DNA from: a virus
Taxonomy: Duplodnaviria; Heunggongvirae; Uroviricota; Caudoviricetes
Direction: 5' to 3' (one strand)
Length of the DNA stretch: 38,978 nucleotides
IMG/VR virus record: IMGVR_UViG_2778261386_000007
The notes beneath the pieces were generated by a model. That model made no database searches. It was not told the DNA's origin and worked only from the letters and a program-made list of their open reading frames with translations. Below are positions 11,299 through 16,502 of the stretch, one piece after another. Both the position numbers and the translations under genes were made by a program. Numbering within the stretch: the stretch's first letter is position 1; each line of letters begins with the position of its first letter.

Positions 11299-11315
11299 TT
11301 TTGTGGAGAAAGTTG

Positions 11316-11693
11316 ATGCGTGATATTCAAATGGTTCTGGATCGTTGGGGAGCATGGGCGGCGAGTGATAGTTCAGGAGTAGACTATTCTCCTATAGCTG
11401 CTGGGTTTAAAGGGCTTCTTCCCTATACAAGCAAAACACGTCAGGCATGTTCAGATAGTGATGCATTAATTATTGAAGGTTGTCTTGCTCGTCTAAGGCA
11501 AAAAAGGCCGGACGAACATTCGCTTCTTGTTGCCCATTACCTATACGGTATCTCTAAAAGAAAGCTCGCCAAGGCTCGTAAAAAGGATGAGAAACTAATA
11601 CGCATTGAGATACAGATGGCTGAGGGGTTTATTGATGGCTGCCTATCGATGCTGGAAATTAGTCTAGAGATGGACCCCGAAATTAAAGATTGA
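11316..11693 (+). CDS. Late-gene antiterminator Q (QuuD/phage-82 type, 125 aa)
   Basis: MRDIQMVLDRWGAWAA... start and ...MAEGFIDGCLSMLEISLEMD C-terminus match my memory of QuuD-type Q proteins; GGAG 8 nt upstream of ATG 11316 (ORF extends upstream to TTG at 11301). Confidence 0.7.
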   Translation: MRDIQMVLDRWGAWAASDSSGVDYSPIAAGFKGLLPYTSKTRQACSDSDALIIEGCLARLRQKRPDEHSLLVAHYLYGISKRKLAKARKKDEKLIRIEIQMAEGFIDGCLSMLEISLEMDPEIKD

Positions 11694-11699
11694 TTATTG

Positions 11700-11724
11700 A
11701 AGCCCGATTACTCGGGCTTTTGTT
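11700..11724 (+). terminator. Hairpin plus T-tract after Q, overlapping the 3' end of the convergent gene
   Basis: AAGCCCGA-TTAC-TCGGGCTT followed by TTGTT. Confidence 0.45.
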
Positions 11725-12727
11725 CCACATCTCGAACATAGAGAATTACTGCTGACTTAATGTCACCATCGACGTGTTTTGCGTTAATGCTCAAATGTAC
11801 AGGCTTTCTTTCCCACTCAGCTCGCTGCAATGCTTCTTTGTTTCCGGATTCATCAAGGAAAACATCCTGAACTACGCAGGTTAGACGTTGGTCGGTATCT
11901 ACGCGTCGGACCTTAACTTTGAAACTCTCTGGGTCAGTATTATTGACTTCTTCAATTCGGTAAATACCATCAATCCTCATTTCTGATGAACGTCTACGAG
12001 CATTCGTAACCAACTCTTTCGCCATTTCAGAATCAATAGTAACGCCATCAATTTGAGCGTTATCTGAACGCACAAAGGATTTGACCATTTGGGTTTTAGC
12101 GTCATACGACATACGGTCCATGTTATCGAGAAGTGGTTTTTCCGCAATCATTTCTGAAATAACCCGCAGGCGTTTAGTTTCTTGCTCGCTCATGATCTGC
12201 ATAGTCCGGAGATGTTCTTTCTCTCCATCCTTAGCAATTTCTGCAAGGCGAATATCTTTACGGTTGTCCAAGAACCGTTTAAATACTGTTACTCCGCCCC
12301 AGATGACTGCTGCGCCGAGAACAGTAAACATGATCTCAGTTGCGTTCATTTTACCAACAAGTTCCTGTGTGAGTTTGGTTAAAAAGCCATCAATGTTGAT
12401 TTCTACTATTGAAGAACCCTGTTCTACCGTAACTTCTATTTCTAGGGCATCAAGTTCTTCTTTGGTCAGTTTGCGGACGTCAGGGACACCGTACTTGGCA
12501 AGGGCATATGATTTGTTGATTTGAGCTTGCATTTCAACAAATCCCTTCATAACTGAAGGTGTTAGCGATCTGTTGAATTTTTCACCGGTTAATCTGATGG
12601 TAAGGTTTGGCCATCCGTTGAAACTTAAACTGTCAGGTAAACCATAACCATCAAGATAGCTTTCAAGCAAATCGAAGGCTTGCTGCTCAGATTCAATGTC
12701 TACATGAATCTCATCAAACTTATCCAA
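11708..12727 (-). CDS. Hypothetical membrane-anchored protein (339 aa), reverse-oriented moron between Q and the late operon
   Basis: TTG start at 12727 with GAGGA 7 nt upstream; visibly AT-rich; one central hydrophobic segment (EIMFTVLGAAVIWGGVTVFKRF) flanked by charged, helical domains; no family recognised. Confidence 0.6.
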   Translation of the reverse strand: MDKFDEIHVDIESEQQAFDLLESYLDGYGLPDSLSFNGWPNLTIRLTGEKFNRSLTPSVMKGFVEMQAQINKSYALAKYGVPDVRKLTKEELDALEIEVTVEQGSSIVEINIDGFLTKLTQELVGKMNATEIMFTVLGAAVIWGGVTVFKRFLDNRKDIRLAEIAKDGEKEHLRTMQIMSEQETKRLRVISEMIAEKPLLDNMDRMSYDAKTQMVKSFVRSDNAQIDGVTIDSEMAKELVTNARRRSSEMRIDGIYRIEEVNNTDPESFKVKVRRVDTDQRLTCVVQDVFLDESGNKEALQRAEWERKPVHLSINAKHVDGDIKSAVILYVRDVEQKPE

Positions 12728-12902
12728 AAATATGTCCTCATTCTAAGCCAACTGTCACCGTGAGGTTTGGCAACGCCTGCTTTATTTTTCGTTTTAAGCT
12801 GTGTGGCAAAAAAATAATGGAAAAACAGATAAAAATCACTAACGCGGTCCGCATTTTCTAGATTACTGTGTTAAGAGTGGTTACTTCGCCACACAACTTA
12901 AA

Positions 12903-12925
12903 CCCGCCGCTGAGCGGTTTTTTTG
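12903..12925 (+). terminator. Short GC hairpin plus T7 tract (candidate tR'-like terminator of a short late leader)
   Basis: CCGC-TGA-GCGG followed by TTTTTTT; short stem, so weak call. Confidence 0.3.
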
Positions 12926-13022
12926 TACCTGTAAACTTGGTGCAGCACAGTAAACACGCTGGTGGTCGTGAATACTGACTTTTTATCTTGCTGGCTTTTT
13001 AGACAAGAGTTATTGGTATGTC

Positions 13023-13250
13023 ATGTTAACCAGAAGGGAAAAAGACATGCTAAAACAGCAAGATATGACAGAAACCGCCGCCGCAGTCCTTCATTTCTTA
13101 CCTGCTGACAAGTGGGTAACGCCACGCATGATGACGAGAACTACCGGAGTAAGCGAAGCCCGGTGCCAGTTAATACTGACTCAGTTAGTTCTGGCGGGTC
13201 TGGCGAAGGATAACGGCGGGTACGGGAATAAATTCAGACGCTGCCAGTAA
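13023..13250 (+). CDS. Small hypothetical protein, possibly winged-helix DNA binding (75 aa)
   Basis: ORF upstream of the methyltransferase; alternative ATG at 13047 has AAGGG upstream; helix-rich with basic C-terminus. Confidence 0.45.
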   Translation: MLTRREKDMLKQQDMTETAAAVLHFLPADKWVTPRMMTRTTGVSEARCQLILTQLVLAGLAKDNGGYGNKFRRCQ

Positions 13251-13400
13251 TGGCGGTTTCCTGCTGTGAAAATGGGCGGCTGGTGGGTGTTGGTAGCACC
13301 TGCCAGCCATTCGCTCATGCTTACTGGTCACAAGCGAACCACGGCCCACTGCTTTAGCGCAAAAGCAGAGTGAGCCTACCAGAGTTACGCTTACTGATCC

Positions 13401-14453
13401 ATGAAAAATACTGTAAAAATAAACAGTGTTGATTTAATCAACGCTGATTGCCTGCATTTTATTCAGTCCCTGCCTGATGATTCCATTGACCTGATTGTTA
13501 CCGATCCGCCTTACTTCAAAGTGAAACCTAACGGTTGGGACAATCAGTGGAAAGGGGACGAAGATTACCTTAAGTGGCTGGACCACTGTCTGGCCCAGTT
13601 CTGGCGGGTGTTAAAACCTGCCGGAAGCCTTTACCTGTTCTGTGGGCATCGCCTGGCATCTGATATTGAGATCATGATGCGTGAACGTTTCAACGTGCTT
13701 AACCATATCATCTGGGCGAAGCCGTCCGGACGTTGGAATGGGTGTAATAAAGAAAGTCTGCGCGCATATTTTCCTGCCACAGAGCGCGTTCTGTTTGCTG
13801 AACATTACCAGGGGCCATATCGCGGCAAAAGTGACGACTATGCGGCAAAAGAAAGGGAACTCAAACAGCACATAATGGCACCGCTGATATCGTATTTCAG
13901 GGATGCTCGTGCCGAACTGGGTATAACGGCAAAACAAATTGCCGAAGCCACAGGTAAGAAAAATATGGTTTCCCACTGGTTTGGTGCCAGTCAGTGGCAG
14001 TTGCCGAATGAGGCTGACTATCGGAAGTTACAGGCACTGTTTTCCCGTATAGCGGCAGAGAAGTTTCAGGAACAACAACTGGAACAACCACACCACCAGC
14101 TGGTGGCATCTTATGATTCACTGAATCGCAAATATTCTGAATTGCTGGATGAGTTTAAATCTCTCCGGCGCTATTTCTCCGTATCAGTCTCCGTGCCTTA
14201 TACCGATGTCTGGACGCATAAGCCCGTTCAGTTCTACCCGGGTAAACATCCGTGCGAGAAACCGGCGGATATGCTCCGGCAAATAATCAATGCCAGTAGT
14301 CGACCTGGTGATCTGGTTGCTGATTTCTTTATGGGATCCGGTTCCACAATAAAAGCAGCAATGGCGCTGGGGCGTCGGGCGTTAGGTGTTGAACTTGAGT
14401 CAGAGCGGTTTAATCAGACGGTGAAAGAGGTAAGTGAACTGGTGGGGAAATAA
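13401..14453 (+). CDS. DNA methyltransferase, beta-class (motif IV DPPY before motif I), probably N6-adenine (350 aa)
   Basis: IVTDPPYF near the N-terminus and DLVADFFMGSGSTIKAA near the C-terminus give the circularly permuted order of beta-class N6A/N4C enzymes; no cognate restriction gene recognised nearby. Confidence 0.85.
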   Translation: MKNTVKINSVDLINADCLHFIQSLPDDSIDLIVTDPPYFKVKPNGWDNQWKGDEDYLKWLDHCLAQFWRVLKPAGSLYLFCGHRLASDIEIMMRERFNVLNHIIWAKPSGRWNGCNKESLRAYFPATERVLFAEHYQGPYRGKSDDYAAKERELKQHIMAPLISYFRDARAELGITAKQIAEATGKKNMVSHWFGASQWQLPNEADYRKLQALFSRIAAEKFQEQQLEQPHHQLVASYDSLNRKYSELLDEFKSLRRYFSVSVSVPYTDVWTHKPVQFYPGKHPCEKPADMLRQIINASSRPGDLVADFFMGSGSTIKAAMALGRRALGVELESERFNQTVKEVSELVGK

Positions 14454-14460
14454 TTCTGGT

Positions 14461-14486
14461 GGCCACGTTGCGTGGCCTTTTTATTT
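14461..14486 (+). terminator. Rho-independent terminator between methyltransferase and holin
   Basis: GGCCACG-TTG-CGTGGCC followed by TTTTTATTT. Confidence 0.6.
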
Positions 14487-14529
14487 CCAACACAGCACCC
14501 GCAAATATCGCGAGGTGAGAGATGACGAA

Positions 14530-14856
14530 ATGCCTCATAACCCAAATACCTGGCTGGACTTGGTCCAGAGCTGGTGGCGTGGAGACACACCGCTGGGTGC
14601 AGTGATTATGTCGATCGTTATGGCTGGTTTGCGCATCGCCTATTTTGGCGGTGGTGGTGGCTGGAAGCGAAAAACGCTCGAGATTTTGCTATGTGGCGCT
14701 CTGACGCTGACCTTTGCATCCGCTCTTGAGTATGTCGGATGGCCTAAATCACTTTCTGTTGCCATTGGTGGTGGGGTGGGGCTGATCGGTGTCGATGCTA
14801 TTCGTGGGGCTGCAATGCGAGTAATCGGTAACAAATTTGGTGGCTCTAAGGAGTAA
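14530..14856 (+). CDS. Holin (lambda S-like, 108 aa from ATG 14530)
   Basis: Hydrophobic TM segments (GAVIMSIVMAGLRIAYFGGGG, LEILLCGALTLTFASALEYVGW, LSVAIGGGVGLIGVDAI) and charged C-terminal tail; immediately precedes the endolysin. Confidence 0.78.
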   Translation: MPHNPNTWLDLVQSWWRGDTPLGAVIMSIVMAGLRIAYFGGGGGWKRKTLEILLCGALTLTFASALEYVGWPKSLSVAIGGGVGLIGVDAIRGAAMRVIGNKFGGSKE

Positions 14857-15875: not shown

Positions 15876-16502
15876 TCAGTTGTCAAATGAATATACGTTA
15901 AAGGTATATGTCGACATAATTTCACCAAGTACCTCAATACATACACTTTTTTTATGAAAATTACTGGGAAATGAACTTAGCTCCTCAAGACATTGCACAT
16001 AAGTGCTGATATCACTTGCATCACGTTCAAGGAATTTCACTTGACCAAAAGAAGGAGTTTTAATCTTGGTTCTTTGCTGGATTATATGGATAAAGTGTGT
16101 AGTTGGTGAAACTATTACTCTTGAAATATCGGAAATGATGTCTTCTTGAACTTGCCGATAAAGTAAATCCTTTGGGTAATGGTGTTTTATCTCGATGGTT
16201 GCAACATTGCCATTATGTTCAGACGTTAATATCGACTGGTTATAAAGTGATATGTCAACAGCGCCGATACCGAGTTTTGGATGCTCACTTAAAGCAGTTA
16301 GTGTGCTGATTTGATTGAGTATAACAACTAACTCATCACGTATTTGTGTTTCATGTTTGCGATTGTAGAAGTAGCCATTCAGTTCATTTAACTTTTTATG
16401 CATCCTATCGTGACTAATTGCTTCGATCAGTAAATCCTGAATCATACTTTTCTCTAGGTAATCCGAACGGTTGTAAGTGACAGTATTGTGCTGGCATGTC
16501 AT
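15876..16502 (-). CDS. Hypothetical protein (208 aa) with possible PD-(D/E)xK nuclease-like motif; downstream gene of an AT-rich reverse cassette
   Basis: Visibly AT-rich; hydrophobic-D ... hydrophobic-E-x-K spacing (GIGAVDISL, then 22 residues, then TIEIKHH); alternative ATG at 16445; no family recognised. Confidence 0.55.
   Translation of the reverse strand: MTCQHNTVTYNRSDYLEKSMIQDLLIEAISHDRMHKKLNELNGYFYNRKHETQIRDELVVILNQISTLTALSEHPKLGIGAVDISLYNQSILTSEHNGNVATIEIKHHYPKDLLYRQVQEDIISDISRVIVSPTTHFIHIIQQRTKIKTPSFGQVKFLERDASDISTYVQCLEELSSFPSNFHKKSVCIEVLGEIMSTYTFNVYSFDN

Follow-up and report, generated by a model that had tools for sequence, protein, structure and literature searches.

PHROG 6191, a family of prophage-borne, membrane-associated candidate exclusion or abortive-infection proteins

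The 38,978-nucleotide window analysed here, the Caudoviricetes record IMGVR_UViG_2778261386_000007 from IMG/VR, carries on its minus strand a gene for a 339-amino-acid (aa) protein (positions 11708–12727), lying between the antiterminator gene Q and the late operon. Its product belongs to PHROG 6191, which is best described as a new family of candidate exclusion or abortive-infection proteins that are membrane-associated and carried by prophages. That the gene is inserted cargo (a 'moron') in a polymorphic hotspot, and not part of the phage backbone, is well supported. The best-supported reading of its function is exclusion or abortive infection expressed by the lysogen; the basis is circumstantial and consists of the position of the gene and the other genes found in the same slot.

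Inserted cargo between Q and the late terminator

The open reading frame (ORF) at 11708–12727 is a real gene. It appears in the ORF list, matches the PHROG profile and is present in RefSeq as the same 1020-bp coding sequence in Escherichia coli PCN061 (WP_000357056.1, 'hypothetical protein'), a genome to which window positions 11301–13400 are 100% identical. A first-pass annotation had described a minus-strand, 339-aa ORF with a TTG start and a strong Shine–Dalgarno sequence. This description holds: GAGGA lies 7 nt 5′ of the TTG (12735–12739, minus strand), and the orthologues from Entomohabitans, Rahnella and Serratia keep (A/G)AGG there. The gene is AT-rich, again as described, with a GC content of 0.41–0.43 against 0.49–0.58 upstream, before Q, and 0.49–0.52 in the late genes downstream. 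The surrounding DNA is a prophage of E. coli whose integration site is a tRNA-Thr gene, confirming the proposed location at thrW.

The left border of the slot is a Q antiterminator gene of the PF06530 type (11301–11693, plus strand; Pfam E = 2e-52). Q and the cargo gene converge tail-to-tail with their stop codons 14 bp apart, in agreement with the earlier description. Common to both is a hairpin at 11699–11720 with a 9-bp stem that overlaps the stop codon of the cargo ORF. It scores −13.8 kcal/mol on the plus strand and −13.6 kcal/mol on the minus strand (z approximately −4.4), and none of 200 shuffled sequences did as well. A U-tract (UUUUGUU) is present on the plus strand only, so the hairpin suits the stopping of Q transcription and does not look like a canonical terminator of the cargo gene. 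The overlap with the 3′ end of the gene, as first reported, stands.

The slot itself (window positions 11694–12905) sits in a recurring backbone that has KilA-N, DUF968 and Q genes on one side and a 67-aa gene, a methylase gene and a holin gene on the other. At least five mutually unrelated cargo sets, all in reverse orientation, occur at this place in the same backbone (including loci L012, L013, L018, L019, L043, L044 and L045), which bears out the proposal that the gene was inserted into a hotspot. These sets comprise the window gene; a 148-aa gene in UTI89 and PhiR40_1; a pair of 147–149-aa and 313-aa (DUF6731) genes in phage cdtI and E. coli strain 11; a 308-aa gene, or a pair of 182-aa and 286-aa genes, in mEp460_4F5 and vB_EcoS-569R4; and a 443-aa KAP NTPase that matches the PADLOC candidate PDC-S20 (E = 5e-177) and PifA (E = 6e-18). 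Slot cargo other than the KAP NTPase had no PADLOC match. When related prophages were compared for presence or absence of the insert, as had been suggested, the cargo gene was found in 83–87 of 5,426 complete E. coli genomes and the flanks in 1,381–1,779. The gene is missing from most close prophages that share its flanks and is therefore dispensable; it is also horizontally mobile.

A widespread family that lacks a name

The window protein matches phrog_6191, annotated as 'unknown function', almost from end to end (E = 1.6e-152; residues 3–337 on profile positions 2–337 of 338), and all 52 distant relatives that we sampled match the same PHROG. A word-indexed search returned 101 relatives at identities down to 26–30%, every one annotated as hypothetical, from Enterobacterales, Pseudomonas, Acinetobacter and Burkholderiales; a search of phage records yielded further relatives in Moraxella and Pasteurella phages. 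By exhaustive profile search, the family extends to 1,520 clusters (50% identity) at E ≤ 0.001, of which 589 reach E ≤ 1e-30, and nearly all of the best 150 of the 1,520 clusters are 320–375 aa long. At least 1,000 contigs encode exactly this protein, as do approximately 1.6% of complete E. coli genomes.

Searches of Pfam, NCBIfam, PADLOC and PDB with the single sequence and two profiles gave nothing above threshold. Neither the window protein nor any of the 52 sampled relatives contains a Pfam domain, and no NTPase motif was found. We rejected two sub-threshold matches as chance, each covering approximately 50 beta-rich residues: one to FNIII-A_GpJ (E = 0.0022; 18.6 bits against a cut-off of 27), seen in 1 of the 52 members, and one to a titin Ig domain. 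In PHROGs, the comparison with virion and lysis families gave no structural or lysis PHROG beyond one marginal match. We found no paper on PHROG 6191 in the literature, and no database gives the family a name.

In BFVD, weak full-length alignments (E = 1e-5 to 1e-6, template modelling score approximately 0.3) were obtained with A0A8S5QA00, A0A8S5T657 and Q6NE06. All three are uncharacterized phage proteins, one annotated as DUF6575 and one from Leptospira phage LE1. These matches suggest that the architecture may reach beyond the family as detected by sequence.

Predicted architecture and the hydrophobic helix

The AlphaFold2 (AF2) model of the window protein (predicted local distance difference test (pLDDT) 84.3, predicted template modelling score 0.66) has four parts. 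An acidic alpha/beta domain at the N terminus (residues 1–125, approximately 8–125 in the model; 12353–12727, minus strand) is followed by a hydrophobic, Gly/Ala-rich helix (residues 131–150, EIMFTVLGAAVIWGGVTVFK; 12278–12337, minus strand), which is a candidate transmembrane or membrane-inserting segment. A charged helical linker (residues 151–220; 12068–12277, minus strand), modelled as helices 146–163, 167–174, 181–196 and 198–218, then leads to a predicted C-terminal OB-fold beta-barrel (residues approximately 221–335; 11723–12067, minus strand). In the model, this barrel has the five strands of the OB-fold superfamily and can be superposed on known OB folds. The first-pass annotation had placed charged helical domains on both sides of a transmembrane segment; the AF2 model corrects this to an alpha/beta domain on the N-terminal side and a helical linker, then an OB fold, on the other.

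Sequence conservation is highest in the core of the N domain (residues 40–110, with the motifs TPSVMKGF and GSS) and second highest in the OB domain, and lowest in the hydrophobic helix and the linker. Residues that are fully or almost fully conserved are G48, T56/P57, Q67, G104/S105, R251/D253/G254/Y256 and E304/W305. The net charge of the N domain is −10 in the window protein, with a family mean of −6. This domain gave no fold match.

Although its sequence varies, the helix keeps its position and its hydrophobic, small-residue character. It has a small-residue packing motif, LGAAxIWGG. The segment EIMFTVLGAAVIWGGVTVF (residues 131–149) has a mean Kyte–Doolittle hydropathy over 19 residues (KD19) of 1.77, and in all 88 members examined the most hydrophobic 19-mer of the protein falls at the same position. 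The family mean KD19 is 1.70, compared with an average of 0.88 for the next-best window elsewhere in the protein; values of at least 1.6 occur in 58% of the 52 sampled distant relatives, and the uncharged run around the helix has a median length of 19 aa. In the model, the hydrophobic stretch is held by helices 129–144 and 146–163 at a pLDDT of 91–94. On these family-wide properties, we provisionally regard the helix as a candidate membrane segment that may insert into the bilayer. A single central segment resembling a transmembrane helix had been noted at the outset; as one conserved segment it survives (88/88), and by simple scales, including the Hessa scale, it is only marginally transmembrane.

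Lysine and arginine are more frequent in the 15 residues after the helix than in the 15 before it (3.8 versus 2.0), which by the positive-inside rule implies an orientation with the N terminus outside and the C terminus inside. Such an orientation would entail export of the acidic 128-aa N domain without a signal peptide, which is unusual, and an in-plane, a re-entrant or an activation-inserted helix are all possible in its place.

This topology bears on strict superinfection exclusion, in which an inner-membrane protein would block entry of the incoming genome without killing the cell. T4 Imm, P22 SieA and HK97 gp15 are genome-entry blockers of this kind. A bitopic, membrane-spanning protein, as predicted from the charge bias, with one hydrophobic helix and soluble domains possibly on both sides of the membrane, would suit the role; the genomic context is the same as for abortive infection, and the P. 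aeruginosa member adjoins the tail-tip gene J. However, known injection blockers are small and reliant on particular host or phage partners, whereas members of this family from Enterobacterales, Pseudomonas, Acinetobacter, Moraxella and Burkholderiales all have the same 330-aa architecture. The unusual export of the N domain counts against strict exclusion as well, and neither Pfam nor PHROGs revealed similarity to a Sie protein. We consider this alternative unlikely.

Genomic positions of family members

We compared the surroundings of family members at 110 loci, of which 80 come from IMG/VR, 11 from GTDB genomes and the others from separate look-ups; clustering at 90% identity gives 30 groups, referred to below as clusters. 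In 8 clusters (54 loci; 69–100% identity to the window protein), from Escherichia, Entomohabitans, Rahnella and Serratia, the gene lies tail-to-tail with a PF06530-type Q gene at a distance of 6–24 bp. In another 9 clusters (27 loci; 27–68% identity), a cI-like repressor gene precedes it in the same orientation at a distance of 26–308 bp. Gifsy-like prophages of Salmonella (at rseC and pncB) belong to this group, as do E. coli phage phi458, Moraxella phage Mcat17 and loci from Morganella and Pseudomonas. It is further downstream of a cI-like gene, again on the same strand, in 4 clusters (6 loci; 29–44% identity), so that 13 of the 30 clusters place the gene in the cI repressor operon in the same orientation. 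Two loci were examined for a terminator-like site between cI and the family gene, one from Salmonella and one from Morganella, and neither has one; in Morganella, a strong terminator directly follows the family gene. Throughout, the family member stands alone, and no partner gene is conserved beside it.

The remaining 9 clusters (23 loci; 33–71% identity) occupy other positions, among them the interval from tail gene I to tail gene J in siphophage-like prophages of P. aeruginosa and sites among the late-region genes of Mu-like phages. Here a function in the lytic cycle, such as lysis timing, assembly, anti-defence or host takeover, comes into view. The gene is co-oriented with its neighbours in the P. 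aeruginosa and Mu-like settings, its product is predicted to be membrane-associated and in the window it lies near the lysis cassette; the weak FNIII-A_GpJ match, below the Pfam threshold, points the same way. By contrast, the window gene is antisense to both early and late transcription and is absent from most related prophages that share its flanks. The GpJ match is confined to that one sampled member, and the PHROG comparison gave no further structural or lysis match of note. Taken together, we regard a lytic-cycle role as very unlikely.

Three observations on these loci stand apart. First, identities to the window copies range over 69–100% for the cargo protein and 50–100% for Q and are only loosely co-diverging (loci L046–L097), with pairs of 99%/86%, 69%/79% and 73%/50% for cargo and Q, respectively; the tail-to-tail pairing persists while recombination shuffles both genes. 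Second, in Acinetobacter sp. BY419 (locus L010, 5480–10193) a same-strand accessory run downstream of a cI-like repressor gene comprises an HSDR_N-domain protein (390 aa), a 100-aa ORF, the family member and a GAF-GGDEF protein, in this order; the HSDR_N-domain protein and the 100-aa ORF had no PADLOC match. Third, a P. aeruginosa locus (L002, 15237–16969) carries, in the same prophage region, a DarT/Macro-domain pair of the DarTG type that lies past the tail-tip gene, approximately 6 kb downstream of the family gene.

The late-operon leader and its possible link to Q

The right border of the slot is a terminator-like hairpin followed by T7, detected by terminator scan in the late-operon leader (12906–12925, plus strand). 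At −6.4 kcal/mol, its stem is weak. The annotations of SfV and Ayreon record this sequence as a terminator downstream of lambda-type Q genes, and alignment showed that phages with different cargo or a different type of Q keep the site. We assign it to the late-operon leader. The first-pass annotation had counted the hairpin and T7 tract as part of the upstream region of the cargo gene. We rejected a regulatory element of the cargo gene's own at this place, given a site that is on the plus strand and is kept regardless of the left-hand gene.

Between the cargo gene and this terminator lies a conserved non-coding element of approximately 100 bp (12797–12893, with no strand assigned). Loci of Escherichia, Entomohabitans, Rahnella and Serratia with a Q of the PF06530 type conserve it, and phage cdtI and PhiR40_1, both of which carry other cargo, share part of it. 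The element includes TGnTAAGA(G/A)TGGTTAC and a small palindrome that varies yet stays palindromic (GCGGaCCGC versus GCGTACGC). It may be a late promoter or Q-utilization region; a late promoter could not be placed with confidence within it. If it is such a site, the cargo separates Q from its target.

A lysogen function outside defence has to be weighed at this point, namely a contribution to host fitness (lysogenic conversion) or a modulator of the maintenance or induction of lysogeny. Repressor-operon and Q–S slots also carry cargo unrelated to defence, such as stx, porin and bor/iss genes, and the PCN061 relative has an annotated iss gene following its lysis genes. The pairing with Q that is kept despite divergence, and the location of the gene between Q and the conserved non-coding element, would fit a regulatory link. 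Yet the protein has no DNA-binding or enzymatic domain, and no signal peptide, lipobox or surface-protein feature, which makes a virulence role at the surface unlikely. In addition, the unrelated positions of family members in lambdoid, Gifsy, Mu-like and Pseudomonas siphophage types indicate a function that is independent of any one circuit. On balance, we hold a non-defence function to be improbable.

Two further features of the window concern its late genes. A second reverse-oriented, AT-rich ORF (208 aa; GC 0.34–0.39) lies just after Rz/Rz1 at 15876–16502 (minus strand); the near-identical PCN061 prophage has an iss/bor lipoprotein gene in its place, and the ORF had no PADLOC match. For the holin gene (14434–14856), the GTG start of the longest ORF falls within the 3′-terminal part of the methyltransferase gene (13401–14453), and the RefSeq start is later, giving a protein of 109 aa from approximately window position 14530.

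A candidate abortive-infection function

The exclusion or abortive-infection idea of the first-pass annotation is the leading hypothesis, based on gene context, and by its position the gene is a good candidate for a new single-gene phage-defence family. Expression of a lysogeny type is suggested by the positions downstream of cI on the same strand, and the two main positions of the family are the classic sites of prophage-expressed genes in temperate phages, and the usual ones of their anti-phage genes. A defence role is favoured because the slots occupied by the family also hold defence genes: the PDC-S20-type KAP NTPase in the Q slot and, in the Gifsy immunity slot, GiPD474, a ParA-like ATPase described as a defence gene (PMC12724215, 2025). 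The article also cites remAIN as a defence system of that Gifsy slot (PMC12724215). Both GiPD474 and remAIN are unrelated to PHROG 6191.

More specifically, we tentatively propose, at close to an even chance, that a single protein combines sensor and membrane effector in an abortive infection that protects the lysogen and its prophage. The prophage would express this protein, as the position of the gene suggests. The OB fold or the N domain would recognize a component of the infecting phage, and the hydrophobic helices would then associate or insert, compromise the inner membrane and stop the infection. A broader reading is possible, if short of an even chance: PHROG 6191 may be an unrecognized, widespread, single-gene anti-phage system, a one-polypeptide counterpart of Rex in which the same chain provides both the sensor domain and the helix that disrupts the membrane. 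It would serve as interchangeable cargo of cI operons and Q slots, with a new fold in its N domain as the conserved core.

Lambda RexA/RexB resembles the family in that many relatives lie immediately downstream of cI on the same strand, and in the idea of a soluble sensor with a membrane component. Rex consists of two proteins, and RexB has four transmembrane helices, whereas the family is a single gene with one hydrophobic segment and the window gene lies outside the cI operon. RexA as a relative was rejected, with no match in PDB sequence or fold searches.

In outline, the predicted architecture resembles those of PdpSau (Staphylococcus aureus phage 53 ORF016) and AbiP (Lactococcus), two working precedents in which one membrane-anchored protein with an OB-like domain aborts infection (PMC10127798). 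PdpSau is encoded by an accessory gene adjoining the lysis module and causes membrane depolarization upon infection (PMC10127798). Like the family, both are single genes borne on mobile elements that combine one hydrophobic helix with a predicted OB-type domain, a likeness that for AbiP goes by description only. However, their anchor is N-terminal, whereas the helix of the window protein is central (131–150), after a conserved 125-aa domain, and the cytoplasmic domain of PdpSau is basic, unlike the OB domain of the window protein.

The slot-mates, that is, the KAP NTPase in the Q slot and GiPD474 and remAIN in the Gifsy slot, share the insertion slots and the single-gene or small-system format, and the KAP NTPase also has the reverse orientation of the window gene. 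They differ in being P-loop NTPases or a three-gene system made of unrelated proteins. GiPD474 was rejected as a relative, there being no Walker A or ParA-like domain in the window protein and no Pfam domain in the 52 relatives.

Morons that defend the lysogen from within late regions are known as well. Tab of P. aeruginosa phage JBD26 is a moron that lies on the reverse strand within a late operon and has a promoter of its own (PMC10884400), and TaiEcA (phi80 orf63) is a moron in the late region that defends the lysogen (PMC11364771). The window gene is like them in being a reverse-strand or autonomous late-region moron. Tab and TaiEcA target tail assembly and have cognate anti-defence partners, whereas no such partner was seen beside members of the window family. 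Tab (83 residues) was rejected as a relative.

Several results weigh against an abortive-infection or exclusion function. We infer both lysogen expression and an anti-phage phenotype of family members from context only. In the window, no convincing sigma-70 promoter for the cargo gene was found by consensus and cross-genus conservation, and in P. aeruginosa and Mu-like phages the gene is co-oriented inside late or structural regions. None of the 5,027 models in PADLOC-DB 2.0 matched the window protein at E ≤ 0.1, and no known defence protein was matched in PDB sequence and fold searches. PdpSau was rejected as a sequence relative, with an hhalign probability of 0.1% (E = 0.65) over 17 columns, all of them in the hydrophobic helix; so was TaiEcA, which is 204 aa long and gave a best BLASTP E value of 9.2. 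As for the proposed parts, summed Hessa-scale values of +2.7 kcal/mol make the helix only marginally hydrophobic, and the implied orientation brings with it the unusual export of the N domain. The OB domain is not basic, so that nucleic-acid sensing is not favoured, and the protein lacks a hypervariable domain, unlike many sensors.

Significance

If the gene does not serve defence, PHROG 6191 is still a conserved family of membrane-associated phage proteins with an N-terminal fold of no assigned type. If it is a defence gene, a large, unannotated family would be added to the catalogue of prophage-encoded immunity, with relatives in phages of Salmonella, Klebsiella, Serratia, Pseudomonas, Acinetobacter and Moraxella. 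These lambdoid prophages would then have a defence hotspot in the interval from Q to the late terminator, and the family could affect the host range of phage therapy in clinically relevant strains such as avian pathogenic E. coli (APEC), uropathogenic E. coli (UPEC) and Salmonella.

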